A stretch of 49,597 nt of DNA from Eubacteriales bacterium (GCA_045660845.1 JAZREO010000115.1:1-49597), one strand, 5' to 3'. Counted from the stretch's first letter, positions 2,956 to 43,055 are shown. Notes: generated from the sequence alone by a model not told the origin. Translations and numbers: made by a program.

Positions 2956-2965
2956 TTGAATAAGA

Positions 2966-3633: not shown

Positions 3634-3713
3634 AAGATTTTTGAAAAAACCTCTTTATTTTATTTCTTATTTATGTTATTATAATCGAAGAATAAAAGGT
3701 GGAGGTATCTCTA

Positions 3714-5051: not shown

Positions 5052-5053
5052 GA

Positions 5054-5482: not shown

Positions 5483-5516
5483 ATAAAAATCCACCCCGTC
5501 AGGGTGGATTTTTATT
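5481..5516 (+). terminator. Intrinsic terminator
   Basis: AAAAATCCACCC-CGTCA-GGGTGGATTTTT. Confidence 0.8.
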
Positions 5517-5583
5517 TACAAATTCATTTTTATACGATATAATATATATTTGTTTAAAAACCAATCACAGGAGTGTGAAAAAA

Positions 5584-7796: not shown

Positions 7797-7799
7797 TAG

Positions 7800-7837
7800 A
7801 AAATGCCTTGTATATTTTTCATACAAGGCATTTTTTA
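7800..7837. terminator. Bidirectional terminator
   Basis: AAAATGCCTTGTAT/ATACAAGGCATTTT between convergent genes. Confidence 0.8.
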
Positions 7838-7847
7838 TCATTTGGGA

Positions 7848-8984: not shown

Positions 8985-9028
8985 AAAAAACACTCCTTTC
9001 ATAGAAGTATATGAAAGGAGTGTTTTTT
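8985..9028 (-). terminator. manA terminator overlapping the yaaH-like RBS and a probable SigE promoter
   Basis: Perfect IR AAAAAACACTCCTTTCATA/TATGAAAGGAGTGTTTTTT. Confidence 0.75.
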
Positions 9029-9029
9029 A

Positions 9030-9944: not shown

Positions 9945-10070
9945 AGTGAACCTCCATGTTTGATGATATCATTATAAAATGATTGGACAACTTTTTCAAG
10001 TCTTTAATTTGTGTTTACTTTTTTAAAATGGTGTGATACTATAAAGTGAGAATATCTGGAAGGAGTATCC

Positions 10071-10976: not shown

Positions 10977-11020
10977 ACAACCCCAGATTGTACTGTCCGT
11001 ACAATCTGGGGTTGTTTTTT
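10975..11020. terminator. Bidirectional terminator
   Basis: AAACAACCCCAGATTGTAC/GTACAATCTGGGGTTGTTT. Confidence 0.8.
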
Positions 11021-11030
11021 GCAGGGCATT

Positions 11031-12428
11031 TTACTGTTTCATTAAAATCTTCACGCCGTCCTTACCGTCCTCCAGCATGACGCCCATGGCAGCCAGCTGG
11101 TCGCGGATCTCATCGGCGCGGGCAAAGTTCTTGGCAGCGCGGGCGGCAGTCCGCTCCTCGACCAAGGCTTTGACCTCGGCGGGGATCTCCATTTCCTGCT
11201 CGCCGGTGACGATGTTCAATACGCCGGTCAGTTCCAGGAACAGTTCCTTCATGGCATTGAGGAAGGGGAGGGAATGGGTATCTGCCAGCTGGGTATTGAT
11301 CCAGCGGGTTAGGTCGAAGATGGCGGAGAGAGCGTCTGCGGTGTTGAGGTCGTCGTCCATCTTCTCCAGGAATTTTTCTTTGAAGGCAGGCAGTTCCTTG
11401 AGCAATTCTTCTTCCTCAGCGGTCAGCTTGCCGGAAGATGCCTTGATGGCATATTCCAGATTATTCTTGGTGGTATACAGTCGCTGCAGGCTCGCCTTTG
11501 CAGCTTCCAGGACATCCTTACTGTAGTTAATGGGGCTGCGGTAGTGGGAGGAGAGCATGAAAAGGCGGATGGCTTCATAGCCATAGGCCGCTGCCGCATC
11601 CCGGACGGTAAAGAAATTACCGGCGGACTTACTCATTTTGCGGTTATCCACATTGATATGACCATTGTGCAGCCAGTAATGGGCGAAATCACAGCCGTTG
11701 GCGGCTTCACTCTGGGCGATCTCATTTTCATGATGGGGGAAGATCAGGTCTACGCCGCCGCAATGAATGTCGATGGTCTTGCCGAGAAATTTGCACGCCA
11801 TGGCGGAGCACTCAATGTGCCAGCCGGGGCGACCCATGCCCCAGGGAGATTCCCATGCGGGCTCGCCGGGCTTTGCCGCCTTCCAGACGGCGAAGTCCAT
11901 GGGATCCTCCTTCAGGTCGTTGACATCGATGCGAGCACCGCTTTCCAGCTGATCCATAGGCAAATGGGAGAGCTTGCCGTAGTCCTTGAATTTCTTGGTG
12001 GAGTAGAAAACATCCCCGCCGGACTCATAGGCGTAGCCCTTTTCAATAAGATCCTCGATGATATGGATGATATCGCCGATGCAATGGGTGGCGCGGGGAT
12101 GGATGGTGGCCTTGCCGACACCTAAGCCTTGAGCATCGGTGTAGTATTCCTCGATGTAGCGGTCGCCCAGCTCAGCCAGGGTGACCCCCTCCTCGTTGGA
12201 CTTTTTGATCATTTTATCGTCCACATCGGTGAAGTTCTGGACGAACTTGACTTTATAGCCCCGGTACTCAAAGTACCGTCTGAGCACATCGAAGGTGATG
12301 AAGGGACGGGCGTTACCGATATGAAAATAGTTATAAACGGTAGGTCCGCAGGCGTACATCAGCACCTTACCGGGGGTGATAGGGACGAATTCTTCCTTTT
12401 GACGGGTCAACGTGTTAAAAAGTTTCAT
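11031..12428 (-). CDS. cysS: Cysteinyl-tRNA synthetase
   Basis: CGPTVY, HIGN, GRPGWHIECS, KMSKS; true start MKLFNT at 12428 after GGAGG. Confidence 0.97.
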   Translation of the reverse strand: MKLFNTLTRQKEEFVPITPGKVLMYACGPTVYNYFHIGNARPFITFDVLRRYFEYRGYKVKFVQNFTDVDDKMIKKSNEEGVTLAELGDRYIEEYYTDAQGLGVGKATIHPRATHCIGDIIHIIEDLIEKGYAYESGGDVFYSTKKFKDYGKLSHLPMDQLESGARIDVNDLKEDPMDFAVWKAAKPGEPAWESPWGMGRPGWHIECSAMACKFLGKTIDIHCGGVDLIFPHHENEIAQSEAANGCDFAHYWLHNGHINVDNRKMSKSAGNFFTVRDAAAAYGYEAIRLFMLSSHYRSPINYSKDVLEAAKASLQRLYTTKNNLEYAIKASSGKLTAEEEELLKELPAFKEKFLEKMDDDLNTADALSAIFDLTRWINTQLADTHSLPFLNAMKELFLELTGVLNIVTGEQEMEIPAEVKALVEERTAARAAKNFARADEIRDQLAAMGVMLEDGKDGVKILMKQ

Positions 12429-12429
12429 A

Positions 12430-13065
12430 TTATTTATCCTCCATTTTTTTCTCAAGTTCTTCAATTTTTGCGGTAAGCCGGGCAAGCTCCTGGGCAATGG
12501 GGTCCGGGACATGGACCTGGTCCAGAGGATCCTCCTCCACCTTTTTGCCGTTTTGCTTGACGATTTGGGCAGGGACGCCCACCGCCGTCGAATGAGGCGG
12601 TATTTCCTCCAGCACCACCGCATTGGCGGCGATCTTGCTATGGCTGCCGATGGTAAAGGGACCTAAAATTTTGGCACCGCTGCCCACCATGACATGGTCC
12701 CCTAAGGTGGGGTGGCGCTTGCCGGAATCCTTTCCGGTTCCGCCCAGGGTGACTCCCTGGTAGAGCAGACAGTGATCACCGATGACGCAGGTCTCGCCGA
12801 TGACGATACCGGTACCATGGTCGATCACCAGCCCCTTGCCGATCTCTGCCGCCGGGTGGATCTCTACGCCGGTACGGAACTTGGCATACTGGGAGACCCA
12901 GCGGGCTAAAAAGAAACATTTATGGCGATAGAGCCAATGTGAAAGTCGGTAAAAAAGCACTGCATGAAAGCCGTTATAGAGCAAAAAGATCTCCGCCTTG
13001 CTGCGGGCAGCAGGGTCCCGCTCCATAAAGGCGTCCAGATCCTCACGCACCTTTTTGAATAACAT
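12430..13065 (-). CDS. cysE: Serine O-acetyltransferase
   Basis: RDPAA, TGVEIHP, IDHGTGIVIGET, KRHPTLGD hexapeptide repeats. Confidence 0.95.
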   Translation of the reverse strand: MLFKKVREDLDAFMERDPAARSKAEIFLLYNGFHAVLFYRLSHWLYRHKCFFLARWVSQYAKFRTGVEIHPAAEIGKGLVIDHGTGIVIGETCVIGDHCLLYQGVTLGGTGKDSGKRHPTLGDHVMVGSGAKILGPFTIGSHSKIAANAVVLEEIPPHSTAVGVPAQIVKQNGKKVEEDPLDQVHVPDPIAQELARLTAKIEELEKKMEDK

Positions 13066-13075
13066 AAACTACCTC

Positions 13076-13300
13076 CAAAAAAATAAGCCTCTGTTGCCAT
13101 AGGCAACAGAGGCGTAAAACACGCGGTTCCACTCTGATTTATCACTCAAAGGTCCCGGTAACGGAGGACGCCGCCTTTCACTGACGCAAAAGGAACCACT
13201 GCGGAGCGCACACTTGGGGAAAACGCTGCTTATCGGGCTTTCAGCCGCCGACCCGACTCTCTGCTAAGGGCGAATTCCTTACTATTTCCGCAGGAAATGT
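13076..13300 (-). ncRNA. T-box riboswitch (Cys) upstream of cysE-cysS
   Basis: Minus strand shows AGAGA and GCTGAA stem I motifs, probable UGC specifier, CCGTTA, T-box AATCAGAGTGGAACCGCG and terminator GCCTCTGTTGCC/GGCAACAGAGGC + T tract. Confidence 0.92.
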
Positions 13301-13480
13301 ATCAACATTTTAATTTATTATATGATAAAGAGGAGAAAATTGCAAGACTTTTTCATTTTTTTGCTCTGCTCTACGGAAAAAATTGTGAAAATCTTTAGAT
13401 TTTTCCATTTTTCTTCACACTTTTTTCATGAAGTTGAGGTATAATATAGTCAAGTAAAAAATCTGGAGGGTTAAAAACCG

Positions 13481-14878
13481 ATGAGTGAATATAATTTTGA
13501 TCCCATGACCGGCGAGCCCATCAAAAAGGACGAGCCTGTGATCGAGCCTACCCCGACGGAGGACACGACCTATCATTATGTCCGTCCGGAATTCGGCGAG
13601 ACCCGATTCCATGAGCCGGAGTCGCCGAAGGCAGAAGAAACCGAGTCCTATTATCAACCGCCCCAACCGAAGAGGCCTAAAAAGGAGCCGAAGCCTATCA
13701 CCGCCAAGGTGTTTGTTCCGGTGGTGGCAAGCGTGGCGGTGCTGGCGATGGTACTGGGTCTTGCGGGCGGTCTGATCGGCGCACGGTATTTTGGAAGCAA
13801 TACGGTTACTGCCGGAACAGCAGTGATCTATAAGACCACCAAATTGAAGGATGCGGACGGTGGAAACGCCAAGGAAACCCTCACCGTCCCCGAAGTGGCG
13901 GCGCTGGTCAAGAACAGCGTGGTGGAGATCACCACCGAGCAGATCGTCACCGGTTCTTTTATGCAGCAGTATGTCAGCGAGGGCGCCGGCAGCGGCGTCA
14001 TTATCACCGCGGACGGCTATATCGTCACCAATCACCATGTTATCGAAGGTGCCACCAATATCAATGTTCGGCTGGCGGACGGCACCGAGTATGCCGCTAA
14101 GCTCATCGGCAGCGATGCCAAGAGCGATCTGGCGGTCATCAAGGTGGAAGCAACAGAGCTGACCCCGGCTGCCTACGGCAGCTCTGCGGAGCTGGCGGTG
14201 GGTGAGACGGTGGTTGCCGTTGGAAACCCCTTAGGCGAGCTGGGTGGAACCGTCACCTCCGGCATCATCAGCGCACTGGATCGAGAGATCACCATTGAAA
14301 ATACCACCATGCGGCTCTTGCAGACGGACACCGCCATCAATCCCGGCAACTCCGGCGGCGGAATGTTCAATACCAGCGGTCAGTTGGTGGGCATCGTCAA
14401 TGCCAAGTCCGCCGGTGAGGAGATCGAGGGATTGGGCTTTGCCATCCCCATCAACACTGCTGCCAAGGTGGTGGAGGATCTCCTGAATGTGGGCTATGTT
14501 ACCGGCAGAGTGGATCCCGGGTTCACCTTTGTGGAGGTCAATGACGCCATGACCGCCATGATGTATCGGGTCAGCGAGATGGGGCTCTATATCTCCGCAG
14601 TGGGCACCGATTCCGATGCGGCAAAGGCAGGCTTCCAGTCGGGAGATTATGTGGTTTCTGTGGAGGGCACCAAGGTCTCGACAGAGGCAGAGGCAAATGC
14701 CTTGATTGATGCCAAGTCGGTGGGTGATACCCTTACCATGGTCATCAAGCGGAATGGGAATGAGCAGACCATGACGCTGACCCTCAGCGAGTATATCCCC
14801 TCTGCCACCCAAAATCAGACCAAACCCCAGCAGCAAGGGCAGGTAAATCCGAATTTTGGCAACATTTTCGGATTTTGA
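13481..14878 (+). CDS. htrA: HtrA/DegP serine protease with PDZ domain
   Basis: TM anchor, GSGVI, TNHHV, DLAVIK, QTDTAINPGNSGG, C-terminal PDZ. Confidence 0.93.
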   Translation: MSEYNFDPMTGEPIKKDEPVIEPTPTEDTTYHYVRPEFGETRFHEPESPKAEETESYYQPPQPKRPKKEPKPITAKVFVPVVASVAVLAMVLGLAGGLIGARYFGSNTVTAGTAVIYKTTKLKDADGGNAKETLTVPEVAALVKNSVVEITTEQIVTGSFMQQYVSEGAGSGVIITADGYIVTNHHVIEGATNINVRLADGTEYAAKLIGSDAKSDLAVIKVEATELTPAAYGSSAELAVGETVVAVGNPLGELGGTVTSGIISALDREITIENTTMRLLQTDTAINPGNSGGGMFNTSGQLVGIVNAKSAGEEIEGLGFAIPINTAAKVVEDLLNVGYVTGRVDPGFTFVEVNDAMTAMMYRVSEMGLYISAVGTDSDAAKAGFQSGDYVVSVEGTKVSTEAEANALIDAKSVGDTLTMVIKRNGNEQTMTLTLSEYIPSATQNQTKPQQQGQVNPNFGNIFGF

Positions 14879-31440: not shown

Positions 31441-31668
31441 TTATTTTAAAAGGGGAATCAGTTCTGTGCAAACATGACTATCGTTTGTAATTGTCATCAT
31501 GTAACAAATGCCATGGGTTCTTTTGGTTATAACCTTAATTTCATTGTCCATCAAGACGACGATGGTGTTCTTATCATAGAGATAATTTTCAATGTGTAGA
31601 GAAATAAGGTCTGTCAGCTTGATTTTATGTTGGAGCAATAGTTGATAAATTTTTTCTTTTATATCCAT
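31441..31668 (-). CDS. Small AT-rich hypothetical protein
   Basis: 75 aa ORF with AGAGGTG RBS and a TTGACA-17-TATTCT promoter upstream. Confidence 0.55.
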   Translation of the reverse strand: MDIKEKIYQLLLQHKIKLTDLISLHIENYLYDKNTIVVLMDNEIKVITKRTHGICYMMTITNDSHVCTELIPLLK

Positions 31669-31686
31669 AATACACCTCTAACAAAG

Positions 31687-31729
31687 AATACCCCATATGG
31701 AGTATTTTGTCAACTCCATATGGGGTATT
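31687..31729. promoter_or_regulatory. Paired operator sites between divergent genes
   Basis: 17-bp perfect IR AATACCCCATATGGAGT / ACTCCATATGGGGTATT; each half is itself a near-palindrome around CCATATGG. Confidence 0.7.
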
Positions 31730-31768
31730 GTCTTATAGTTTTGTTAGAAACTATATTTGGAGGATCAA

Positions 31769-31978
31769 ATGTTGCGTTTCAGAGATTTGAGAGAGGATCA
31801 TGACCTGACCCAGCAGCAATGCGCAGAAATTGCGAATATCAGCAAAAATTCTTATATTCGCTATGAAAATGGGATGCGGGCAGTACCCAGTGATGTGGTT
31901 ATTGTCTTGGCAAAGTATTATAATGTATCTGCGGACTATTTGTTGGGATTGATTGACCAACCAAGAAAATTAAAGTAA
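31769..31978 (+). CDS. Small XRE-family HTH regulator
   Basis: LREDHDLTQQQCAEIANIS..Y.RYENG...P......LAKYYNVSADYLLG; GGAGG RBS. Confidence 0.85.
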   Translation: MLRFRDLREDHDLTQQQCAEIANISKNSYIRYENGMRAVPSDVVIVLAKYYNVSADYLLGLIDQPRKLK

Positions 31979-32008
31979 AAACAGGAGAGCGATGCTCTCC
32001 TGTTTTTT
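31977..32008. terminator. Bidirectional terminator
   Basis: AAAAACAGGAGAGC-GAT-GCTCTCCTGTTTTT. Confidence 0.8.
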
Positions 32009-32923: not shown

Positions 32924-34000
32924 TTATATGACCAGATCCTTGCGACGTGCCCGGCGGACCCGGTTGATGTGTCGCTCGAAATCGCCACTGCCGATCAGTT
33001 CTGCCAGAACATATTGTTCAAAGACCGGAACTGTGCAGGAATAAAAGCCCAGCCGTTGCTCAAAGGCGGGGAGCAGCTCCTCCGGCAGCAGCATATATCC
33101 TACCCGCATGGAGGGGGCAACGGTCTTGGAAAAGGTGTTGAGATAGATCACCGAACTGTCGGAGAGGGAAAAGATGGGGTCATCGTTTTTCATGGAGACG
33201 GTCAGTTCCGAATCATAATTATCTTCGATGAGAATTCCACCCCGCTTTTTCGCCCATTGGAGATATTCCGCCCGCTTGGAGGCACCGGCGGTGATGCCGC
33301 TTGGAAAACTGTTGAAGGGAGTGATGTGCAGGACAGTGGCGGCGGTCTTTTCCAGCTCGGCGGAGCGGATGCCGTCCTGCCCTAATTTCAGCAGATCGCA
33401 TTGGATGCCGCTTGCCTCATAGACCCGGCGAATTTTATCGTAAGAGGGGTCCTCTAAGGCAAAGATGCGGTCTTTGCCCAGCAGCTGGGCAATGAGACTG
33501 TAAAGATATTCCGCGCCGGAGCCGATGATGATCTGCTCGGGGCGGACCCGGATGCCGCTGCTTCGCGCCAGATAGGCGGCGATAGCACTCCGCAACTCGG
33601 CGCAGCCGTGGTTGGGGGACTTGACTAAAATGCTCTCGCCGTAGTCACTGAGTACCTTCCGCATGGTCTTGGCAAGTACTGAATAGGGAAAGCGGCATTT
33701 TGCGCTGTGTGCCGTTCGGCGGGGGACACGCTCTGCCGGGGCGGTGGAGAGAAAATCCTTCTCTCGGTAAATGATATAATAGCCGCTGCGCTGCCGGGCT
33801 TGGATATAGCCTTCGTCGTCCAAAATGGCGTAGGCGTGCTCTACTGTGATGACGCTGACCCCCGTCTCCTCTGCCAGCAGCCGTTTGGAGGGGAGTTTGG
33901 TGCCATAGGGAAAGACTCCGCTGACAATGTCCCGCCGGAGCTGTTCGTATATTTGCAGGTACGCTGCCTTGCTGTTGTTTCGGTCGATATAGTTTTTCAT
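32924..34000 (-). CDS. MocR/GabR-family regulator (GntR wHTH + PLP-binding domain), PdxR-like
   Basis: KLPSKRLLAEETGVSVITVEHAY, IEDNYDSE, YLNTFSKTVAPSMRVGY; upstream of pdxK. Confidence 0.88.
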   Translation of the reverse strand: MKNYIDRNNSKAAYLQIYEQLRRDIVSGVFPYGTKLPSKRLLAEETGVSVITVEHAYAILDDEGYIQARQRSGYYIIYREKDFLSTAPAERVPRRTAHSAKCRFPYSVLAKTMRKVLSDYGESILVKSPNHGCAELRSAIAAYLARSSGIRVRPEQIIIGSGAEYLYSLIAQLLGKDRIFALEDPSYDKIRRVYEASGIQCDLLKLGQDGIRSAELEKTAATVLHITPFNSFPSGITAGASKRAEYLQWAKKRGGILIEDNYDSELTVSMKNDDPIFSLSDSSVIYLNTFSKTVAPSMRVGYMLLPEELLPAFEQRLGFYSCTVPVFEQYVLAELIGSGDFERHINRVRRARRKDLVI

Positions 34001-34206
34001 GTGGTTATATGAAAATCTCCTGTTTTAATGAATTGGGTATATCCAGTATGGTATTATAGCCCTTTGGCTTGAAAAAAACAAGAGGATGCAGAAAAATAAA
34101 AGAGGCTGTTGATACAGCCGCTGAAAGTTGTTTATTAATGGGGCTTTTGACGAAGTAGGGCGTGAAATAGAGCGGGTGGGGGAGGAGATACTCTCCGTTG
34201 CACCGA

Positions 34207-34343
34207 TTTTTCGAGCCGCTGGTCGGCGGCTTGCGAAAAATCGCCGCACTCCGAGACACAGCAGTCCGCCTGTTATCGACAGGCGGCTGCCTCAACGAAC
34301 CTTTTTGCCGATGGCAAAAAGGTTCGATCTCCGAGGATCGTCA
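34207..34343. repeat. Array of three GC-rich hairpins plus an antisense copy of the tRNA-Lys 3' end
   Basis: Stems GAGCCGC/GCGGCTT, CCGCCTGT/ACAGGCGG, CGAACCTTTTTGCC/GGCAAAAAGGTTCG; then GTTCGATCTCCGAGGATCGTCA. Confidence 0.6.
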
Positions 34344-35834
34344 AATAAAAACAGCACCCATTCGGGTGCTCTTTTTATTTGGTGAACTGCCCGATTTGAA
34401 ATCCGAACTATTTATTTTATCAAAACTAATTGTTTCGCTGTTTTCTTTGTAATTAAAGTTTATGATCATTCTATCGTCATAGACATAAATTGAATTTACA
34501 AAATAGTCTATAAGCTGTTGCCTGTGTTTAGGCTTAGTCATATCATAGGTGCGAAAGGCTTGTAGCCAACATAAAATCTGTTCTCTTGTAATTATAGGGT
34601 TTTCAATTTGTTCTTTTATAATTTTATCTTCCAAGCGGTTCTTGGTTTCTTCAAGTTCGTCAAGTCTTTGTTTTGTTGATTTGGTAAAAATGCCTTGTTC
34701 AATAGCATTTAAAATATTTTCAATGCTTTTTTCGGTTTCTTTCAGTTGTTTTTTTAGCTGTGAAAGAATCGTATTTTCACTTTTCGATAATTCAAAGGCT
34801 TGATCTGCGATGTATTCTAACATATCATCATCAAACAATGTTGTTATCGTGTGCTTTACAACTAAGTCTTCAAGGTACTGTTTTTTGATGGCTTTTCTTT
34901 TGCATCCGGTTTTTAATTTTGAACTCCTGCATTTATAGTAATAATATGTATTTCCCGTACAACTTGTTCCGCTTTCTCCTACCATTGATTGTCCGCAATC
35001 GCCACAAAATATTTTAGTTGTTAATAGAAACAGTTCATCAGCGGTAGTTTTTGTTCTCGCAGGAGAATGTCTGTTTTTATCAATACGCTTTTGTACTCTG
35101 TTAAATAAATCTTTTTCAATGATAGCCGGTATTCCGTTTTCTATAATAACATCATCGTAGCAATATTCTCCAATGTAACGCCGATTTCTTAAAAGACGAG
35201 TAAAGAAACCTCTCGAAAATTGGGTAGTTGTATCTATCTCACGCTTTTTTAATGATTCCGAAATTTCTTTTATGGTTTCGCCCTCAGAATATCGTGTAAA
35301 AATTTCTTTTACTATCGAAGCCGCAATAGGTTCAAGCTCATATTTTCTTTCTTTGTTGATTCTGTAACCATAAGTGATCGAACCGCCATTACTTAAACAT
35401 TTTAGCGCATTTTCGTGGTGTCCTCGCTTTACCTTTTCGGAAAGTTCAGCAGAATAAAATTCTGCATATCCCTCTAAAAGACTTTCAAGCAGTATTCCTG
35501 TGCTGTCCTCGGCAATACTTTCCATAGCTGAAACAACCTTTACGCCGTTTTTCCGAAGTATCCCCTTATAATGTGCGCTGTCATAGCGGTTTCTTGCAAA
35601 GCGGTCAAGCTTCCAAACTAAAACAACAGCAAATAGTTTATTGCTACTTTCTTTAATCATTCGTTGAAAATCTGGACGATTGTCCGTTTTTGCAGAAAAC
35701 GCACGGTCAATATATGTAGTTATGATTTTCATACCATGCCTTTCGGCGTAAGCGGTACACTCTCTTATTTGCCCTTCAATGCTTTCTTCTCTTTGGTTGT
35801 CTGAAGAATATCGGGCATAAATTACTGCATTCAA
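34341..35834 (-). CDS. Large serine recombinase (resolvase + recombinase + zinc-ribbon domains)
   Basis: YARYSS catalytic motif, KLDRFAR, CGDCG and YYKC zinc ribbon, coiled coil; TTG start; last 12 codons lie outside the element. Confidence 0.95.
   Translation of the reverse strand: MNAVIYARYSSDNQREESIEGQIRECTAYAERHGMKIITTYIDRAFSAKTDNRPDFQRMIKESSNKLFAVVLVWKLDRFARNRYDSAHYKGILRKNGVKVVSAMESIAEDSTGILLESLLEGYAEFYSAELSEKVKRGHHENALKCLSNGGSITYGYRINKERKYELEPIAASIVKEIFTRYSEGETIKEISESLKKREIDTTTQFSRGFFTRLLRNRRYIGEYCYDDVIIENGIPAIIEKDLFNRVQKRIDKNRHSPARTKTTADELFLLTTKIFCGDCGQSMVGESGTSCTGNTYYYYKCRSSKLKTGCKRKAIKKQYLEDLVVKHTITTLFDDDMLEYIADQAFELSKSENTILSQLKKQLKETEKSIENILNAIEQGIFTKSTKQRLDELEETKNRLEDKIIKEQIENPIITREQILCWLQAFRTYDMTKPKHRQQLIDYFVNSIYVYDDRMIINFNYKENSETISFDKINSSDFKSGSSPNKKSTRMGAVFI
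34344..34379 (-). terminator. Terminator, inferred to be the original tRNA-Lys terminator
   Basis: AATAAAAAGAGCACCC-GAAT-GGGTGCTGTTTTTATT directly after the duplicated TCACCA. Confidence 0.75.
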
Positions 35835-35851
35835 AATTTCACTTCCTTTCT

Positions 35852-36220
35852 TTATTGTTTTGTTTCTTCTTTAAGCATTTCGGTCAAGGTATCTTTCAGT
35901 TTCTGACTAATCGGAGAAGCAGGATCAAAGCACATATTTACGAATTTTCTCAGTTCCTTGTCCTCTTTTGTCATAGCTTCAACAAGATTGGGTTTGTATT
36001 CGTATAACCTGCCCTGCGGCTGATCCGTTCTTGCAAAGATATAATCCATAGATACATCAAAAAAGTCTGCATACCACCGCAAAACCTTTATAGGCGGTGC
36101 CGCCTGTGCATTTTCGTATCGGTTTACACTTGCCTGTGTTCCGCCCATCAGCTTTGCAATTCTTGCTTGTGATAAACCAGCGTTTGTCCGTAATGCTCTT
36201 AATCGGTTGTTTAATTCCAA
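35852..36220 (-). CDS. XRE-family HTH regulator, probably co-transcribed with the integrase
   Basis: LRALRTNAGLSQARIAKLMG..QASVNRYEN...FDVSMDYIFAR; TTG at 36220 fits the GAAAGGGG RBS (GTG 36229 is an alternative start). Confidence 0.85.
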   Translation of the reverse strand: MELNNRLRALRTNAGLSQARIAKLMGGTQASVNRYENAQAAPPIKVLRWYADFFDVSMDYIFARTDQPQGRLYEYKPNLVEAMTKEDKELRKFVNMCFDPASPISQKLKDTLTEMLKEETKQ

Positions 36221-36244
36221 ATTTAACACCCCTTTCTATATATG

Positions 36245-36273
36245 ATTATACGCTATCTGTATATAATTGTCAA
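36245..36273 (-). promoter_or_regulatory. Consensus SigA promoter of the xre-integrase unit
   Basis: TTGACA-17-TATAAT on the minus strand. Confidence 0.8.
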
Positions 36274-36410
36274 CACTACATTTGAATATAATAAAACGGC
36301 TAAAGCAAATACTTTAACCGTTTTATATAGAGAATTTTTTTGTTTTCAACGCTTTCTTGTGGTTGAATATTCATTTTCTTTAATTGTTGTTATGTCTATT
36401 TCTTTATTTT

Positions 36411-36965
36411 TCACTTTTCATCAGTAATGTGATTTTTTATATTATTCCATGTCAAATCATTTGTATTTTCACTAATAAATGTGATTGCCTTGTATATATC
36501 TTCTTTGTCTTCTGATGTTAAAGGCAAGTCTATATCTGTAATAATCATATTATTAAATACAGTATTCGCATCATATTTACCGATATACCTAGATATACCA
36601 ACTCTGTCTATGAGCATATGCATATTCTGTGAATTTGGATCAACCTCTAAAGGCTGGAACGAAATTAGAATGTTGATTTTATTATCGCCTTCTTCATCAG
36701 CCGGATAGTTAACATACTTCCAATATGTCAGATCATAATTAGAAATTCTGCCACCGGATGTATATTCTTTCCTGCCACATCCACCTCTCATAGAAATTTC
36801 TAATTCTTTTTTGTGTTTTAAAAATCTTTTTAGTTCCAAACACTCTTGTTTTCTAAATTCCACATATAAATTTTTAATCTCATTAAAATCATATTCGTTT
36901 TTCAATGTACTTGTATCTTTTAGAGAAAGTTTTAATTCTCCATTTTTATCTTTTACAAATTCCAT
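36411..36965 (-). CDS. Hypothetical cargo protein
   Basis: 184 aa AT-rich ORF with AGGA RBS; no motif recognised. Confidence 0.7.
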   Translation of the reverse strand: MEFVKDKNGELKLSLKDTSTLKNEYDFNEIKNLYVEFRKQECLELKRFLKHKKELEISMRGGCGRKEYTSGGRISNYDLTYWKYVNYPADEEGDNKINILISFQPLEVDPNSQNMHMLIDRVGISRYIGKYDANTVFNNMIITDIDLPLTSEDKEDIYKAITFISENTNDLTWNNIKNHITDEK

Positions 36966-37018
36966 ATTTCCTAGTTCTTTTCGATTTTTATAGTTTGTTT
37001 ATCAACTAAACATTTGTA

Positions 37019-37852
37019 TTACCAATTCGTAGCCCATTCGTTCATATTAAAAAGGTAATTACCATTTTCATCATAAACATTGCCTTTGCTGTCTCTATAG
37101 GTGTAGTGAACTCCGGTTTCATCCTCAAATTTAAACTTTTCCATTCCATTAAAATTAGAAGAACTATTATTAGAAGCGTTGGAAGAACTAGAATTATTTC
37201 CACTAGAGGAATTGCTACCAGAACCAGTGCTGCTATTATTGGCAGTTTGCTTCTGAACTTCTTCGGCAGCCTTCTTCGCAGCAGCTTCCTCTGCTTCCTT
37301 TTTAGCCTTTTCTTCTGCTTCTTTCTTCAGTCTTTCTTCTTCAGCTTTTTCAGCGGCTTCGATTTCAGCAATTTTATCTGTATAGATTTTTATTTGTTCA
37401 TCAATTTTTGAAATTATACTTTCTTTGCTTGTGATTTCATCAGCCTCTATTTCAATCTTTAAGTCGTTCAGATTGACGATAAAAGTATTTAATTCTTCTT
37501 TCGTTATATCATCAGAAATCACCACCGGATTTTTAGTAAGCTCTGCTTCATAACAATCTATCAGTGTGACTTTCATATCATCAAGCGTGATATTAAAGTT
37601 TTCTTTGTTTTCGTCATACTCGGAATATTTTTCAGTATTAGAAATAAATTCTTTCAAAATATTATATTTTTCCGATCTGCTTTCAGCACTTTCAAAAGAA
37701 GAATATACATTTTCTATTGCGGTATTAATATCATCAATATGATTTTGTTTTTTGACATTAAACACTGTAATGGTCGCAGTAATTGCAAGCAAGATCAGCA
37801 CTAAGATGATCAAACCCCAGATTATAAATTTTCTGTTTAATAGTTTTTTCAA
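37019..37852 (-). CDS. Membrane-anchored extracytoplasmic cargo protein (TM, helical domain, E/K/A coiled coil, S/N-rich linker, short C-terminal domain)
   Basis: Composition of the translation; GAGGAGG RBS best fits TTG at 37852 (start uncertain). Confidence 0.75.
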   Translation of the reverse strand: MKKLLNRKFIIWGLIILVLILLAITATITVFNVKKQNHIDDINTAIENVYSSFESAESRSEKYNILKEFISNTEKYSEYDENKENFNITLDDMKVTLIDCYEAELTKNPVVISDDITKEELNTFIVNLNDLKIEIEADEITSKESIISKIDEQIKIYTDKIAEIEAAEKAEEERLKKEAEEKAKKEAEEAAAKKAAEEVQKQTANNSSTGSGSNSSSGNNSSSSNASNNSSSNFNGMEKFKFEDETGVHYTYRDSKGNVYDENGNYLFNMNEWATNW

Positions 37853-37879
37853 GATCATTCCTCCTCGCAAAGTATTCTA

Positions 37880-38096
37880 TAAATAAAAAATGCGCCTACC
37901 GAAGTAGACGCATAAAAAACGCAAACTCCAATAGTCGCCAAACCAATCTGTACAAACGAATAATTCCTTGCAAACAGAAATGGAACTTGCATTTTTTGCA
38001 AAATTCAATCTGTTTGCAATTAAGATACGCAAAAAAGATATAATATCCCTAAGGTATTATATGTTTGTACATTATTTGATTGATTTGGCGACTATT
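37880..38096 (-). ncRNA. Candidate structured RNA or attenuated leader ending in a UUCG terminator
   Basis: Nested inverted repeats forming a three-way junction, TTGAAA-17-TATAAT promoter (38125-38097), terminator ATGCGTCTAC-TTCG-GTAGGCGCAT-TTTTT. Confidence 0.6.
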
Positions 38097-38171
38097 ATTA
38101 TATCATTCTATGTCAAAAATTTCAATATAGCCAGAGTAAAATAATATTTTAATTGATTTTTGAAATAGGGT

Positions 38172-38816
38172 TTAGCTTTTTTTGAAATGCAAGGTTTTTA
38201 AATGCTTTTTGTAAAAACTTGGGTGCTCTGTTACTTTACCTATGATTTCAATCAGTTGTTTTTGAGAGAGTAAAAGATATGGATGGGCAATATTAATTCG
38301 CGTTCCTTCTTTTTTTACTTTCTTATACCTGTTTTTTGCTGTCTGTAAATATTCTTTATAAGCTTGTTCCTTCATTTCGGCATCATTTATATTTTCGTAT
38401 TTTGTGTACGCTTTTGCAACATCCTTAAATAAAGTGTATAGCCTATCATTCATATATAGAATGAGCGGTCTATCTTCGGAAAAAGTGACTAATTTCGTTG
38501 GGGTTATTGCATCCTCAATTGCTAAGGTGTCTTCATTATATTCAGAATAAATTATTTTGCAGAATAAATTAATAAAGTCATCAATATTATCTGAAACAGT
38601 ATCAAAACCAAGTAATCTTTTAATATCTATTCCTAGTGCTTCAGCGAGAAACTCTAAATGCTCAATGTTCATTCCCTCGCCTTTTTCTATTCTTGATATC
38701 GTCGATGCTGAAACGCCACTTTTATATTCAAGATCTTTTAGTGTCATTTTTTGGTGACTTCTTTCATCTTTGATTCTTTTTCCGATTTCTGTTTTATTTA
38801 TCATATTGTCTATCAT
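38172..38816 (-). CDS. XRE-family HTH regulator with extended C-terminal domain
   Basis: IGKRIKDER..QKMTLKDL...SGVSASTISRIEKG; AGGAG RBS before ATG 38816; divergent from the mobilization genes. Confidence 0.85.
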   Translation of the reverse strand: MIDNMINKTEIGKRIKDERSHQKMTLKDLEYKSGVSASTISRIEKGEGMNIEHLEFLAEALGIDIKRLLGFDTVSDNIDDFINLFCKIIYSEYNEDTLAIEDAITPTKLVTFSEDRPLILYMNDRLYTLFKDVAKAYTKYENINDAEMKEQAYKEYLQTAKNRYKKVKKEGTRINIAHPYLLLSQKQLIEIIGKVTEHPSFYKKHLKTLHFKKS

Positions 38817-39022
38817 GTTGTCACTCCTTGATTTTTCAATTTTGAAAAATACATCAGGTTTGAAAAAATTCAATTGTCTGTATTTTTCCTATGGTATCAT
38901 AATAACAGAAAATCGATTTTCAAGCAATATACAATAGAGAAAGAGGTGAAAGCAACACTACAACTCAAATCAATCAACATTCCATTGTTATATTAAATTA
39001 AATTTTAAAGGAGAATTTTATT

Positions 39023-39388
39023 ATGGCCAATAAATTAATTGTGAATTTAGCCACTGTTAATGGCGGCTTTGATTATTGTATTTTAACCTCCAAGGCCCCT
39101 ATCCCACTGTATGAAAATGGGACAAAATTAGAAAAATCGGGTGGTACTAAACTTAGTGTTGTATTACAAGGAAATCGTTTTACGCCGTTGAATGTAAAAA
39201 TTGAGGGTGACAATAACGTATTACCTAATCTTACAGATGAACAAATCAACGATGCTTGTTCTTCGTTAAAGCTCATTCCCGTGAGATTTACCGACTGTAA
39301 AATCGCTTTGTATTCAATTAATAACAATATGGTGATGTCGGCAACTGCAAGCGGATGCGAAATTTTATCAAATAAAAAGGAGAGCTAA
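39023..39388 (+). CDS. Small probable OB-fold ssDNA-binding / relaxosome accessory protein
   Basis: 121 aa, beta-rich; first gene before the FtsK-like ATPase and Rep, the position held by Orf22/23-like proteins in Tn916/ICEBs1-type modules (inference). Confidence 0.55.
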   Translation: MANKLIVNLATVNGGFDYCILTSKAPIPLYENGTKLEKSGGTKLSVVLQGNRFTPLNVKIEGDNNVLPNLTDEQINDACSSLKLIPVRFTDCKIALYSINNNMVMSATASGCEILSNKKES

Positions 39389-39404
39389 CAAATAAGTAAA
39401 AGAG

Positions 39405-40538
39405 GTGTTCATCATGATAAAAAAATTAATTATACGCATTATGGCTATTTTAGGTTATATAGCCGCAGTCATTATAATTTTCAAGAATAGAAATGTGATT
39501 CCTGCACCGTTGGGTATGATTACAAGGGATTTGGTTTTAATAGCACTTTCGATATGTTTTTTGATAATTATAACCGAGCTCTTGCGTTATCCTTTTGGCA
39601 AAAGAAAATTTGACAAAGCGTTTAGAAAAATCGGATTAAAAAATGCTTTGTCTGAATACCCTGTTTTGCTTTCTGCCAAAAGAGATAAGCACAAAGAACA
39701 CGGCGTTATATACACCATAAAAAACATGGGAATACCGATAACCGATTTTGATAATTCCACCCCTGCGTTACAAGCTGCACTTGACTTAATGATATATAGG
39801 CTCGATTATGGTAGAAACGCTAAAAAAACAAAAATTCATGCCATACCATTTAAGTATGATAAACCGAGAATTATTTCTACAGATAGTACCGATTTAGCTG
39901 ATGATATGATTAATATACTCTGCATAGGTGCCACCGGATCTGGCAAGTCATATGCTTTATTGACAATTTTGGGATTGTTTGCTAAAACTAACGCCAAGAT
40001 TTATATATGCGATTATAAAAACGGCTTTTCAAAATTTGAAAACACCCAAAATTTTTATGGTTATGAAGATATTGCTGACGGAATACAAGCCGTATATAAA
40101 GAGTTTTCAGAACGGCTCAAAGAAAATAACCAAGAAAGAAATAATAACAAAGTTGTTCTACTTATTGATGAATACGGTGCATTTATTTCAGCGATAGACA
40201 AGAAAAATGCTGAACAGTATAAAACAATGGTTGCAAATATGCTTTTTATGGGTCGCAGTCTTGGCATTATAGTCCTGATCGGGATACAAAGGGCGGATAG
40301 TGAATATTTTAAAGCCGGTGCAAGAGATCAATTCAAAATGGTGTTAGCACTAGGCAATCTATCCAAAGAGCAAAAATCCATGTTATTCTATGACTATAGA
40401 GACAAGTTGAATCATAATAACGGCGTAGGCGAGGGGTATTTGCTTATTGACGGAAAAGGCGTTGAACGAGTTAAGGTGGCGACTATTAAAAACTTCGACA
40501 CGCTTAATGCGAATATTACTGAAGCAATGAACCGCTAA
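39405..40538 (+). CDS. FtsK/SpoIIIE-family ATPase (TcpA-like coupling protein)
   Basis: Two N-terminal TMs, Walker A GATGSGKS, Walker B LLIDE, GRSLGI, QRAD; start may be ATG 39414. Confidence 0.85.
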   Translation: MFIMIKKLIIRIMAILGYIAAVIIIFKNRNVIPAPLGMITRDLVLIALSICFLIIITELLRYPFGKRKFDKAFRKIGLKNALSEYPVLLSAKRDKHKEHGVIYTIKNMGIPITDFDNSTPALQAALDLMIYRLDYGRNAKKTKIHAIPFKYDKPRIISTDSTDLADDMINILCIGATGSGKSYALLTILGLFAKTNAKIYICDYKNGFSKFENTQNFYGYEDIADGIQAVYKEFSERLKENNQERNNNKVVLLIDEYGAFISAIDKKNAEQYKTMVANMLFMGRSLGIIVLIGIQRADSEYFKAGARDQFKMVLALGNLSKEQKSMLFYDYRDKLNHNNGVGEGYLLIDGKGVERVKVATIKNFDTLNANITEAMNR

Positions 40539-40539
40539 A

Positions 40540-40601
40540 ATGTATGGGCGGTGAGGCGAAGCGTAAACCGCCCATACATAATTAACTTGATTATTGTAAT
40601 C
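40540..40601 (+). other. Candidate rolling-circle origin / oriT
   Basis: 13-bp perfect IR ATGTATGGGCGGT/ACCGCCCATACAT without a T tract, then AACTTGATTATT, directly upstream of the Rep gene. Confidence 0.55.
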
Positions 40602-40639
40602 TAATATCAGAAAATAGCCATCAAAAAAGGGGGTGAAAA

Positions 40640-41587
40640 ATGAAGTTTGAAAGAATAGATAGCAACAAGGAACCTGATTTAGATAGCGTTGTTCAATTAA
40701 AGAAAATGGGAAATATATATGAAATCAAGTCTATGAGCAAAACACCAACAATGCCTATAAAAAAGATTGATAAAGATCACTTTGTTGAAATTGAAACAGG
40801 TGAAATAAAATCATTTAAACACAATGAAAAAAGAATTGATAACCTTTCAAGCGTATCGCAATCAATAAAACATTTGAGAGAATATATTAATGCTAATATA
40901 ACAAATGCAAAGAATGTTCTTTTCATAACATTAACCTACGCCGAAAACATGCAAGATGCAGATAAATTATATCAAGATTTCAGAAGATTTAATATGCGTT
41001 TGAAATATTACTTAAACAAAAATAAACTGCCAAGTCCGGAATATTTCTTGGTAGTTGAGCCACAAGCAAGAGGGAGCCTCCATGGGCATTTACTATTGCT
41101 TTTTCAAGAATCCGCGCCGTTCATACCTAATGAAAAGTTAGCTGATATTTGGGGACATGGTTTTGTGAAAACAAAATCGTTAAAGAATGTGGATAACATC
41201 GGGGCGTATCTGTCTGCATATTTGGGCGATATGGAATTAGATGAATCTATATTGATAAATAACCATAATGCAAAGGGTTTTAAGGTTGTTGAAAGCGTTG
41301 AAGAAAATAGCCAAAGGCGATCAAAAGCAATCGTCAAAGGTGCACGCCTTAAACTCTACCCTAAAGGGTTTCGTATTTTTAGAAAAAGTAAAGGAATTGT
41401 TGCACCTGAAATCATATCTTGCACATATGCAGAAGCATTAAAGGAAATAGGTAATAGCACTTTAACTTATGCGAAAACAATTAAAATATCTGATGATGAC
41501 GGAAAAACTTGTAATATCATTAATTATCGTCACTACAAGAAAAAACAAAATAACGGGGGTGTTCTTAATAATAAAGAAACACGGTGA
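40640..41587 (+). CDS. HUH rolling-circle replication initiator / relaxase
   Basis: Motif I FITLTY, motif II EPQARGSLHGHLLL, WGHG, motif III YLSAYL. Confidence 0.85.
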   Translation: MKFERIDSNKEPDLDSVVQLKKMGNIYEIKSMSKTPTMPIKKIDKDHFVEIETGEIKSFKHNEKRIDNLSSVSQSIKHLREYINANITNAKNVLFITLTYAENMQDADKLYQDFRRFNMRLKYYLNKNKLPSPEYFLVVEPQARGSLHGHLLLLFQESAPFIPNEKLADIWGHGFVKTKSLKNVDNIGAYLSAYLGDMELDESILINNHNAKGFKVVESVEENSQRRSKAIVKGARLKLYPKGFRIFRKSKGIVAPEIISCTYAEALKEIGNSTLTYAKTIKISDDDGKTCNIINYRHYKKKQNNGGVLNNKETR

Positions 41588-41741
41588 TTATGGAACAGGT
41601 ATTGAAGTTCATGTTATTCAGTCTGTTGCTCGGTGTCTTTTGCCAGATATATTGAAATTCTATGAAAGGGAAGAGGGACAAAAATACTACAAAGAATGGA
41701 AAAATAAGCAGGAACAGACTGAGAATAGAACCAAAGCATAA
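41559..41741 (+). CDS. Small protein at the element end (candidate directionality factor)
   Basis: ...QSVARCLLPDILKFYEREEGQKYYKEWK...; overlaps the rep 3' end and is followed by a terminator; start uncertain. Confidence 0.5.
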   Translation: MFLIIKKHGDYGTGIEVHVIQSVARCLLPDILKFYEREEGQKYYKEWKNKQEQTENRTKA

Positions 41742-41744
41742 ATG

Positions 41745-41777
41745 AAAATGGATAGCCAAAAACGGCTATCCATTTTT
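41745..41777. terminator. Terminator of the mobilization operon
   Basis: AAAATGGATAGCC/GGCTATCCATTTT. Confidence 0.8.
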
Positions 41778-41789
41778 CTCATACCCTAT

Positions 41790-41842
41790 AATAAAAAACA
41801 AATCCGAACACACCCTCAAAGAAAACAGGGGAATGTTCGGAT
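41790..41842 (-). terminator. Element-supplied terminator-like hairpin downstream of tRNA-Lys
   Basis: Minus strand ATCCGAACA-TTCCCCT...AGGGTG-TGTTCGGAT followed by TTGTTTTTTATT. Confidence 0.6.
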
Positions 41843-41853
41843 ACTTGTTTTCG

Positions 41854-41929
41854 TGGTGATCCATCGGAGATTCGAACTCCGGACCCTTTGATTAAAAGTC
41901 AAATGCTCTGCCAGCTGAGCTAATGGATC
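41854..41929 (-). tRNA. tRNA-Lys (anticodon TTT)
   Basis: 76 nt: acceptor GATCCAT/ATGGATC, D arm AGCTCAGCTGGCAGAGC, anticodon arm TTTGA-CTTTTAA-TCAAA, T loop GTTCGAA, encoded CCA. Confidence 0.97.
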
Positions 41930-41946
41930 ATTTTCAACGCTAATAC

Positions 41947-41975
41947 ATTATACAGGGTGTCAATTTATTTGTCAA
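41947..41975 (-). promoter_or_regulatory. Consensus SigA promoter of tRNA-Lys
   Basis: TTGACA-17-TATAAT on the minus strand. Confidence 0.8.
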
Positions 41976-42047
41976 GAAAAATATTCTCGAAAAAATAAAG
42001 GTATTTTGTCTGTTTCTTTGTATAAATAAAATAGGAGGAATAAAAGG

Positions 42048-43055
42048 ATGAATTTTCGAGAGCAGCAAGAAACATTTGAAGCGCAGCAACTTTCTTCCTT
42101 TGCCTGCCTTTCCCGGGACAGCCGGGGGCGGACGGAGGCGGTGGAGCCCTGCCCTTTGCGTACTTGCTTTAGCCGGGACCGGGACCGGATCATCCATTCC
42201 AAGGCATTCCGGCGGCTGAAGCATAAGACCCAGGTCTTTTTAAGTCCGTCGGGGGATCATTACCGTACCCGCCTGACTCATACCCTGGAGGTTTCCCAGA
42301 TCGCTCGTTCTATTGCTCGGGCACTCCGGCTGAATGAGGACCTGACTGAGGCCATCGCCCTGGGTCATGATCTGGGTCATACTCCCTTTGGTCACGCTGG
42401 AGAGCGGGCGTTGAACGCCATCGCATCCATCCCCTTCCGGCATAATGAGCAGAGCGTGCGGGTGGCGGCGATCTTGGAGCGGCTCAACCTGACCTATGAG
42501 GTGCTGGACGGCATGGCGGGGCACACAGGAGACAAGCTTCCTGCTACCTTTGAGGGGCAGGTGGTCCGTCTATCTGACCGGATCGCTTACATTAATCACG
42601 ATATCGACGACGCCCTCCGGGGCGGCATCATTCGGGAAGAGGACCTGCCTCAGGCGGCAACGGCTGTCTTAGGGCAGAGCTCCGGGCAGCGGATCAATAC
42701 CTTGGTCCGGGGCGTGGTGGACCACAGTCTGAATAACGACCAGGTCTCCCTCTTGCCGGGGGTCACCATCGACCCGGAGGTGGGCAAGGCGCTGGACACG
42801 TTGCGTACCTTTATGTTTGACCAGGTCTATACCGGCTCTATGGCGAAGACCGAGGAGGCGAAGGCGGAGCGGCTGATGCAGCGGCTTTTCCGTTACTTTA
42901 TGGAGCGACCGGAGCGTATCCCTGCCGAGTATCTGCCGGTGATGGAGCAGGAGGGCACGGAGCGTGCAGTGCTGGACTATCTGGCGGGCATGACCGACAC
43001 TTATGTTGTGACACTTTATAAGGAAATATACTTACCGAAAGGATGGGAATTTTAA
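42048..43055 (+). CDS. dgt: Deoxyguanosinetriphosphate triphosphohydrolase-like protein (HD domain)
   Basis: RDRDRIIHSKAFRRLKHKTQVF, RTRLTHTLEV, HDLGHTPFGHAGE, DRIAY..HD, AGMTD. Confidence 0.92.
   Translation: MNFREQQETFEAQQLSSFACLSRDSRGRTEAVEPCPLRTCFSRDRDRIIHSKAFRRLKHKTQVFLSPSGDHYRTRLTHTLEVSQIARSIARALRLNEDLTEAIALGHDLGHTPFGHAGERALNAIASIPFRHNEQSVRVAAILERLNLTYEVLDGMAGHTGDKLPATFEGQVVRLSDRIAYINHDIDDALRGGIIREEDLPQAATAVLGQSSGQRINTLVRGVVDHSLNNDQVSLLPGVTIDPEVGKALDTLRTFMFDQVYTGSMAKTEEAKAERLMQRLFRYFMERPERIPAEYLPVMEQEGTERAVLDYLAGMTDTYVVTLYKEIYLPKGWEF

Follow-up and report, generated by a model that had tools for sequence, protein, structure and literature searches.

The DNA that we analysed is a 49,597-nucleotide contig of a Eubacteriales bacterium (GCA_045660845.1 JAZREO010000115.1:1-49597), referred to below as the window; all coordinates count from its first letter. 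It contains a GC-poor island at the 3′ end of a tRNA-Lys(UUU) gene. The best explanation, to which we assign a probability of about 0.75, is that the island is a 7.47-kb integrative element, inserted at this tRNA end by the large serine recombinase (LSR) that it encodes. The island measures 7,474 bp from core to core and is ∼32% GC, whereas the host is ∼55% GC. The composition breaks sharply; GC is 0.28–0.38 across 34500–41999 and 0.51–0.61 in the flanks. Two copies of the hexamer TGGTGA bracket the island, one at the recombinase-side junction (34380–34385) and one at 41854–41859. The neighbouring bases of the two copies are unlike, t versus g on the left side and a versus t on the right side. 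Because the adjoining bases differ on both sides, the direct repeat is exactly 6 bp, which agrees with an earlier annotation made from this DNA alone (the sequence-only reading), according to which only these six bases are duplicated at the ends. The element is present as a single copy in its 1.44-Mb, 162-contig genome. By its housekeeping neighbours, the host is one of the uncultured gut Clostridia near Oscillospiraceae, Acutalibacteraceae and Ruminococcus metagenome-assembled genomes, and its genome is Oscillospirales-like.

The tRNA-Lys(UUU) gene (41854-41929, minus strand) is intact as judged by ARAGORN (ttt anticodon) and Rfam (71.6 bits); it is the sole tRNA gene in the window, and the Rfam scan of 33800–42300 returned nothing beyond it. 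Given this placement, TGGTGA is the reverse complement of TC (acceptor bases 71–72), A73 and CCA, and the right-hand copy is therefore tRNA bases 71–76. We searched both flanks across 60 related genomes. In G028, a genome of the same genus, the left gene, a terminator repeat, the six bases, the tRNA and the right gene follow one another without a break and without the element, and the junction reads ...aaataaaaacagcacccgattgggtgctgtttttatt followed by a single TGGTGA and then TCCATCGG (minus strand, ...GATGGATCACCAAATAAAAACAGCACCC...). The empty site that had been predicted exists in this genome with one base changed, and the element boundaries drawn earlier are borne out in this related species. 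Both flanking genes are on one contig within ∼5 kb in G026, where the element is absent as well; in 13 genomes of the genus, what stands directly 3′ of the CCA is a hairpin and T-run of the host and not the element. With these sites lacking the element, the insertion is defined to within the 6-bp repeat. The hairpin directly 3′ of the tRNA CCA in G028 and other same-genus genomes is found in the window at 34347–34379 (hairpin 34353–34370, with T-runs on both strands in the terminator scan). This old tRNA-Lys terminator is host DNA; at present it is 7.5 kb away from the tRNA, as the B′ arm (bacterial side) of the recombinase-side junction.

The left flank that ends with this hairpin (34180–34379) is a multi-copy intergenic repeat of the genus, with many matches per genome on both strands; two further copies are present in this genome (contigs C137 and C149). 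In G028, the palindrome of the repeat reaches into the tRNA acceptor end (gatggatcaccaaataaaaacagcaccc...gggtgctgtttttatttggtgatccatc). Further out, an isolated GC dip to 0.36 at 31500–31999 is surrounded by host sequence of 0.52–0.56. At the same tRNA-Lys, G026 (contig C34, L008/L123) and G008 (contig C59, L021/L124) carry a ∼170-bp segment with a 29-nt duplicate of the tRNA 3′ end as its boundary, together with an inverted fragment of the tRNA body. The arrangement resembles what a different integration, of the long-repeat (tyrosine) type, would leave behind.

The recombinase gene occupies the left end of the island on the minus strand (34341–35834). Its 497-residue product, in the integrated form, matches phrog_95 (integrase, 8e-107) and contains three Pfam domains: Resolvase (PF00239, residues 3–143, 3.3e-30), Recombinase (PF07508, residues 170–254, 1.4e-15) and Zn_ribbon_recom (PF13408, residues 270–327, 1.8e-11). 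The segment YARYSSDNQ (residues 6–14) carries an R8-x-S10-x3-Q14 motif, which presumably includes the nucleophilic serine. Cysteines at 277, 280, 302 and 311 lie in the zinc-ribbon domain, and residues ∼335–420 are rich in Glu, Lys and Leu with a heptad-like arrangement, a candidate for the coiled-coil insertion by which the zinc-ribbon domain of LSRs controls directionality. The protein is the only recombinase among nine open reading frames (ORFs) scanned against Pfam, NCBIfam and PHROGs, that is, eight of at least 121 aa and a 90-aa ORF overlapping the replication gene; no tyrosine integrase (PF00589) was found among the element proteins scanned. The earlier call of a serine-integrase element holds, the sole recombinase aboard being a complete LSR. 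The LSR frame crosses the core, and codons 486–497 and the stop, 12 host codons in all, are host DNA of the old terminator. In the predicted circular form, the frame would run 24 codons into the other end of the element and give 509 instead of 497 aa. This running of the frame into host DNA is absent from the sequence-only reading. The element has its own outward-facing integrase at one end, and its attachment (att) site is within the integrase gene.

Joining the ends of the element reconstructs a candidate attP, the attachment site of the free form, as GTTCGGAT-N15-TC-A-CCA-N11-ATCCGAAC. On the plus strand, GTTCGGAT (41835–41842) ends 11 nt before the core and ATCCGAAC (34401–34408) begins 15 nt after it. 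As computed by script, the joined arms are perfect inverted repeats of 8 bp that enclose a 32-nt spacer, and their centre is the step between G and A of the core. The P arm (34386–34408) consists of the 15-nt spacer and the 8-mer ATCCGAAC, which reads GTTCGGAT on the gene strand, and is located inside the LSR coding sequence; the P′ arm (41835–41853) consists of the 8-mer GTTCGGAT and the 11-nt spacer. The arm 8-mers are absent elsewhere in the window, except for one more ATCCGAAC at 41802. This second copy, 25 nt further on, pairs with the P′ arm (41802–41809 with 41835–41842) and forms the stem of a new tRNA terminator, a hairpin and U-run at 41794–41852 on the minus strand, of which the tRNA-proximal half is the P′ arm. 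The RNA fold has −25.2 kcal/mol and a z-score of −4.9, and 1 of 200 shuffles was as good. Analogous hairpins stand 3′ of the tRNA in Pro, Tyr and Val elements (L045, L081, L100 and L059). The proposal that the element supplies ACCA and a new terminator and leaves the tRNA intact is upheld by ARAGORN, by Rfam and by this strong hairpin with its U-run.

The same layout recurs with related recombinases. The genome-contig collection gave 80 related loci, mostly from Faecalibacterium and uncultured Clostridia, with LSRs 43–62% identical; together with the window and G019 (see below), 82 LSR loci were examined. GTTCG-NN-T, N15, NN, N and CCA stand at a fixed place in the LSR gene 3′ end in 63/82 loci, and the GTTCGGAT-type 8-mer has the same position inside the gene in all 63. 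Among the other 19 loci, seven stop short of the gene 3′ end, one has a spurious match only, and five from Collinsella have the same arm with ACA replacing CCA (L073). Another four of the 19 (43–44% identical) show the opposite geometry; in three of these, a tRNA or transfer-messenger RNA (tmRNA) 3′ end faces the gene end and is followed by a ATCCGAAC-like arm. The metagenome-contig collection, with 80 kept loci and LSRs 49–54% identical, contained 82 half-motifs, all integrated, and no intact attP. In 61 related genomes, LSR identity was at most 56%.

Of 164 loci scanned, 38 elements could be delimited at both ends, in tRNA-Lys (2), Pro (3), Tyr (1), Met (3) and Val (29) genes; for metagenome loci, the tRNA was assigned via 3′ ends of 16 nt identical to those of ARAGORN-called loci. 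All 38 elements show CCA, then 10–11 nt, then an arm complementary to the arm inside the LSR gene. Counted back from CCA, junction identity is 6 nt in six elements, 7 nt in 21, 8 nt in eight, 9 nt in one and 11 nt in two, and is never below bases 71–76. It ends exactly at base 71 in four independent pairings of tRNA and LSR: the window, G019, tRNA-Pro(CGG) (L045) and the Val-type elements in tRNA-Met (L115/L348/L352, six shared bases). G019 carries a different, 12.7-kb element in the same tRNA-Lys, with an LSR that is 39–40% identical and sits at the far end. The core of this element is TCACCA(AA), and TCACCAAA is common to both junctions; the arms GTTCGTAT/ATACGAAC differ from GTTCGGAT/ATCCGAAC by a paired change that keeps complementarity, and the left spacing is likewise 15 nt. 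This element (L122, G019:C136:23000-38500) extends from about 1079 to 13737 with a GC of 0.32–0.51; a short contig of G001 (L011) has the same tRNA-side end. When the seven other proteins of our element were compared with 81 related loci by tblastn, one weak helix-turn-helix (HTH) match was the only result. The cargo is therefore not common to the relatives, and the LSR with its att site is a module that moves from one backbone to another.

Viral contigs were scanned for the two 8-mers and CCA at the family spacing, 19 specified bases in total. At least 114 viral-contig stretches contain the intact attP pattern; the chance expectation is about one or a few, a rough estimate as the collection size is not given. 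In the 80 loci examined there are 84 attP instances, and at 71/84 an LSR homologue (35–47% identical) on the same strand ends no more than 120 nt from the left arm. Of these 71 sites, 58 have a right spacer of 10 nt and 13 one of 11 nt. The reconstructed attP layout thus recurs in relatives and is intact in free phage-like contigs. One characterized relative is Roseburia phage Shimadzu, whose integrase is 44.5% identical over 98% of the protein; read by eye, its free genome shows the arms with 15 / 6 / 10 spacing just past the integrase gene. In the part of the Shimadzu report that we draw on, the att site is inside int, the two integrase forms differ in their last 22 residues, and a second phage copy is inserted in a tRNA (10.1101/575076). 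Two ‘Bacteriophage sp.’ fecal scaffolds (L125 and L126) were considered as circular forms and rejected, as they have no terminal repeat and show host-like terminators after CCA.

The following scheme would account for these observations. The outer attP 8-mers are taken as the motifs read by the zinc-ribbon domain. In attB, the attachment site of the host, the tRNA would supply the same kind of 8-mer through its own T-loop, GTTCGAAT (G53–U60), which lies 10 nt from bases 71–72 and matches the attP arm at 7/8 positions. The distance from arm to bases 71–72 is 15 nt in attP and 10 nt in attB, which places the T-loop 5 bp nearer to the centre. With TC as the centre, the attP arms fall at half-site positions 17–24 on both sides and the T-loop at 12–19 in attB; in the model of the Listeria LI integrase, as outlined in passages of PMC3783163, the zinc-ribbon motif is at 16–24 in attP and at 11–19 in attB. 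By this analogy, the 5-bp offset between arm and T-loop is an exact fit to the known shift between attP and attB of LSRs. From arm to arm the site measures 48 bp, and TC is non-palindromic; both agree with LSR att sites, which are short (∼40–50 bp) and have imperfect inverted repeats on either side of a 2-bp crossover that is not a palindrome. Strand exchange would take place at the 2-bp overlap TC (tRNA bases 71–72), within the window at 41858–41859. After integration, bases 1–72 of the tRNA would be of host origin, A73-CCA and the hairpin terminator would come from the element, and the old terminator would have moved to the far end, where it completes the LSR frame with 12 host codons. In the tRNA-Val group, arm and T-loop are the identical 8-mer GTTCGAGT.

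Several observations weigh against this explanation; they concern the motif evidence, the present-day activity of the element and the position of exchange. The inverted repeat alone is only moderately unlikely (p ∼0.02). A symmetric perfect repeat of at least 8 bp centred in the core appeared in 353/20000 shuffles of the two 60-nt ends, and 489/20000 random 60-mer pairs from the element equalled the core-centred repeat of at least 8 bp. Because the repeat by itself is weak evidence, its weight comes from the comparative data. These are dominated by one lineage (Val and Met, 32/38 delimited elements), and the patterns behind the 63/82 loci, the 38 elements and the 71/84 sites require the motifs that are counted; the independent part is the link to the LSR gene and the tRNA. 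With respect to activity, no recombination directionality factor (RDF) family and no relaxase family was recognised in the Pfam, NCBIfam and PHROGs scans of the element proteins. The contigs of runs X1–X3, which represent a different sample and are contigs only, contain no circle junction or empty site of the same organism and no joint across 34386–41853.

These absences would also be explained if the element were a fixed relic, inserted by the LSR in the past and now incapable of excision or transfer for want of a directionality factor or a helper conjugative system. We regard this as unlikely; it is the alternative that survives best. In addition to the unrecognised RDF and relaxase, it is favoured by the absence of an excised form in the bovine gut contigs and of a near-identical copy in species-representative genomes (best 62%) or metagenome contigs (best 54%). 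However, all eight ORFs are open, the LSR domains are complete and both arms are perfect, and the strong GC contrast argues for a recent arrival. The only run with related sequence, a bovine gut metagenome (share 0.12, contigs only), also speaks against a relic, as a ∼95% identical variant with a different middle stands beside the same tRNA end in that sample. One of its contigs covers 40175–41882 with the replication gene, the right end and 29 nt of the tRNA, and is an independent assembly of the tRNA-side junction; another contains the LSR and HTH genes (34378–36165) as a ∼94% variant. The bovine gut variant suggests different cargo on the same backbone, and the element may still be active. 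In run X1, nothing matched 36166–40174, between the LSR/HTH and the replication/right-end modules, save a few short fragments.

The position of exchange is the remaining point. The sequence-only reading had placed the crossover at the last two bases of the acceptor stem. This is the best-supported position and is still an inference: bases 71–72 are favoured because end identity never falls below bases 71–76, and identity stopping exactly at base 71 in four pairings is what an obligatory match at 71–72 predicts. It had also placed the centre of the inverted repeat exactly in the core. The 8-bp repeat with its 32-nt spacer is exactly centred in this element, whereas in most relatives the right spacer is 10 nt and the centre is half a base off. 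The 11-nt right spacer stands against 10 nt in 37/38 delimited elements, the window being the only exception, and in 58/71 viral sites. With the 31-nt spacer of most relatives, the arms are therefore symmetric about base 71 and not about the step between 71 and 72, and exchange at 70–71 is as symmetric as exchange at 71–72. The mismatch at base 70 excludes 70–71 only in the six elements with 6-nt identity, and identity at 73–76 would be kept by selection on the tRNA wherever the crossover falls. Moreover, the host B′ arm has no arm-like motif at the expected offset: across 63 distinct flanks the mean is 2.27/8 matches, which is the chance level (∼5 of the 63 flanks being pattern matches away from an LSR end). 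Therefore attB appears to have one sequence-specific half-site, and the symmetric two-half-site picture fails for attB.

Alternatively, the same element and LSR could have used another dinucleotide of the core (CA, AC, CC or CA within A73-CCA) instead of TC. All five core dinucleotides are identical at both junctions, and with the odd 31-nt spacer of most relatives symmetry picks no single step. A later centre, however, makes the arms unequal, e.g. 17 versus 12–13 nt for AC, and shifts the arm and the T-loop out of the 16–24 and 11–19 windows of the LI model; the stop of identity at base 71 in four independent tRNA/LSR pairings also argues against it. We consider exchange at a later step improbable, ranking it just behind the relic, and TC is retained as the probable overlap.

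Misassembly is a very improbable source of the island. The 162-contig metagenome assembly and an island composition foreign to it would allow a misjoined low-GC contig, but the tRNA-side junction is also present in the independent bovine assembly, both junctions show the layout of 37 other delimited elements, and G028 and G026 show synteny with the host flanks. Integration by another enzyme, e.g. a tyrosine integrase acting in trans with the LSR as cargo, recalls the classic use of tRNA 3′ ends by such integrases (as stated in a passage of PMC4383910) and the 29-nt partial duplicates of this tRNA end in G026 and G008, and is nearly negligible: the element has no tyrosine integrase, its repeat is only 6 bp and not the tens of bases of Islander-type islands, and the att motif forms part of the LSR gene and accompanies LSR homologues (63/82 loci, 71 viral sites).

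A more general proposal is put forward tentatively, at slightly under an even chance. In a widespread clade of LSRs from phages and mini-elements of gut Clostridia, the near-universal tRNA T-loop would serve as the zinc-ribbon motif of attB, and one specific half-site together with bases 71–76 would suffice; the tRNA would be chosen by a short acceptor-end mimic in the 3′ end of the LSR gene, and the P′ arm would double as terminator. If so, a switch of target between tRNAs (e.g. from Val to Met, with six shared bases) would need few base changes in attP, and the tRNA genes of many hosts could serve such LSRs as docking sites, with no landing pad installed beforehand.

Several Faecalibacterium loci (L054, L059, L062, L064 and others) and metagenome loci L326–L404 are elements of 2.3–2.8 kb, consisting of the LSR gene and ∼1 kb. 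They occupy tRNA-Val(GAC) and tRNA-Val(CAC), with several per genome and three loci in F. hattorii. At L062, an inverted copy of the tRNA-Val 3′ end lies just past the LSR gene (11480–11584) and the P′ arm is further on; elements may be arrayed here in tandem or inverted order.

Islands in tRNA genes are usually credited to tyrosine integrases. The remark in the sequence-only reading that tRNA targeting mostly belongs to those enzymes is right in that serine cases are rare in the literature; such cases are not new, given the Mycobacterium elements, phiRSM1 and the Dehalococcoides ssrA islands described below. Where known systems are compared here, the descriptions are taken from passages of the cited reports. 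In passages on Shimadzu, the att site lies in the 3′ end of the integrase gene and the C-terminal tails differ between the free and integrated forms, as in our element (22 aa in Shimadzu; 12 versus 24 aa here). In contrast, Shimadzu is a 45-kb tailed phage with a core that lacks an encoded CCA, whereas our element is 7.5 kb and has a replication initiator (Rep) and an FtsK-like ATPase but no virion genes; T-loop-like arms and a 5-bp offset are not described in those passages (10.1101/575076). AICEs (the integrative and conjugative elements of actinomycetes) of Mycobacterium, located in tRNA-Leu, are likewise small and unite a serine recombinase with a replication initiator and a translocase of the FtsK/SpoIIIE type in a tRNA gene, and serine-recombinase integration into tRNA genes is termed rare by the authors (PMC3218068). 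They belong to another phylum, and the Rep of our element is not RepSA, RepAM or Prim-Pol but belongs to the ORF2/G2P type of small plasmids, a comparison made by description and not by sequence. As double-strand transfer by FtsK alone is tied to mycelial actinomycetes, the ATPase in a Clostridia host is more likely the coupling protein of a helper system.

The Dehalococcoides ssrA islands, which are proposed to be mobilizable, are similar in that an LSR (DsiB, CcrB-like) island occupies the 3′ part of tmRNA with a repeat embedded in the recombinase gene (PMC3146451); they have a second, small serine recombinase (DsiA), whereas here we find one recombinase and a 6-bp repeat at 71–76. The A118-type LI integrase of Listeria innocua shares the order of resolvase, recombinase and zinc ribbon, and its attP and attB are ∼50 and ∼40 bp, with the zinc-ribbon motif 5 bp inward in attB (PMC3783163). 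Different from the LI attB in comK, where both half-sites carry motifs, only the tRNA half of attB carries one here. The filamentous phage phiRSM1 also uses a tRNA 3′ end (tRNA-Ser) through a serine recombinase; as cited in PMC3218068, however, its recombinase is small, resolvase-like and without recombinase and zinc-ribbon domains, and its host is Gram-negative. Streptococcal integrative and conjugative elements in rumA have attR inside the integrase gene (PMC4701971), and no streptococcal integrative and mobilizable element with a serine integrase was found in a tRNA (PMC5357655).

Against this background, the element is a new member of the LSR-borne integrative elements. As far as we searched, the att design that mimics a tRNA and recurs in many gut phages and mini-elements is an undescribed variant: no account of T-loop-like arms or a one-sided attB was found in the literature, while supplements (e.g. 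PMC12084326, on Faecalibacterium elements) and catalogues of LSR att sites, which lay outside the search, may list such sites. What the sequence-only reading had observed at this locus is real, and by sequence comparison its model appears well supported. A 6-bp repeat is too short for repeat-based island finders. The five tRNA species and at least 114 viral stretches point to such elements being common in gut Clostridia, where they are probably under-annotated. For enzymology, these are natural attP/attB pairs whose attB is a tRNA in one half and essentially free in the other, which would test the need for the two-half-site model. For engineering, they are candidate integrases with att sites that would be computable in conserved genes.

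The remaining genes of the element are consistent with an integrated rolling-circle-plasmid-like or mobilizable element with a Rep, an FtsK-like ATPase and two HTH regulators. The 315-aa Rep (40640–41587, plus strand) is a rolling-circle replication initiator (PF23343 REP_ORF2-G2P, 4.4e-21; phrog_3419, 7e-18) and is 38–45% identical to the Reps of 1.5–2.7-kb Firmicute plasmids. Next to it, the 377-aa FtsK/SpoIIIE-like P-loop ATPase (39405–40538, plus strand; phrog_1358, 8.4e-18) has hydrophobic N-terminal segments and weak FtsK_SpoIIIE, AAA_22 and EssC matches; it is a putative DNA translocase or coupling protein. Rep and ATPase are combined without a full type IV secretion system: VirB4 and VirD4 were below significance in the eight proteins, with one weak VirB4-like line (E 0.0019). 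No structural or lysis PHROG was found among the eight proteins, and a lone ‘terminase’ line is a weak P-loop match of the ATPase (5e-6).

Two XRE-type HTH regulators are encoded on the minus strand. The one of 125 aa (35852–36229; HTH_3/HTH_31), next to the LSR gene, also matches an RstR-family repressor at 2.9e-14, under the curated cut-off; the other is 233 aa (38172–38873; HTH_3, HTH_26, HTH_19). A 184-aa protein (36411–36965, minus strand) and a 121-aa protein (39023–39388, plus strand) have no match in Pfam, NCBIfam or PHROGs; the latter could be a candidate directionality factor. The 283-aa protein (37019–37870, minus strand), known from its translation and with weak matches only, is hydrophobic in an N-terminal segment, charged and rich in Glu, Lys and Ala in the middle and rich in Ser and Asn in the tail.

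Upstream of the gene for the 283-aa protein is a minus-strand leader (37881–37946), with a good promoter match at 38125–38097. It ends in a GC-rich hairpin and T-run (37913–37890) right before the ribosome-binding site. The leader belongs to no Rfam family; ∼60 nt of it are matched by several unrelated contigs of run X1 with high summed depth, and it may be an attenuator or a conserved leader. Elsewhere in the same genome, two further LSR-like genes or fragments (G000:C70:31938-32456 and G000:C91:1264-2274) are 34–36% identical to the LSR, and both are located near contig ends.

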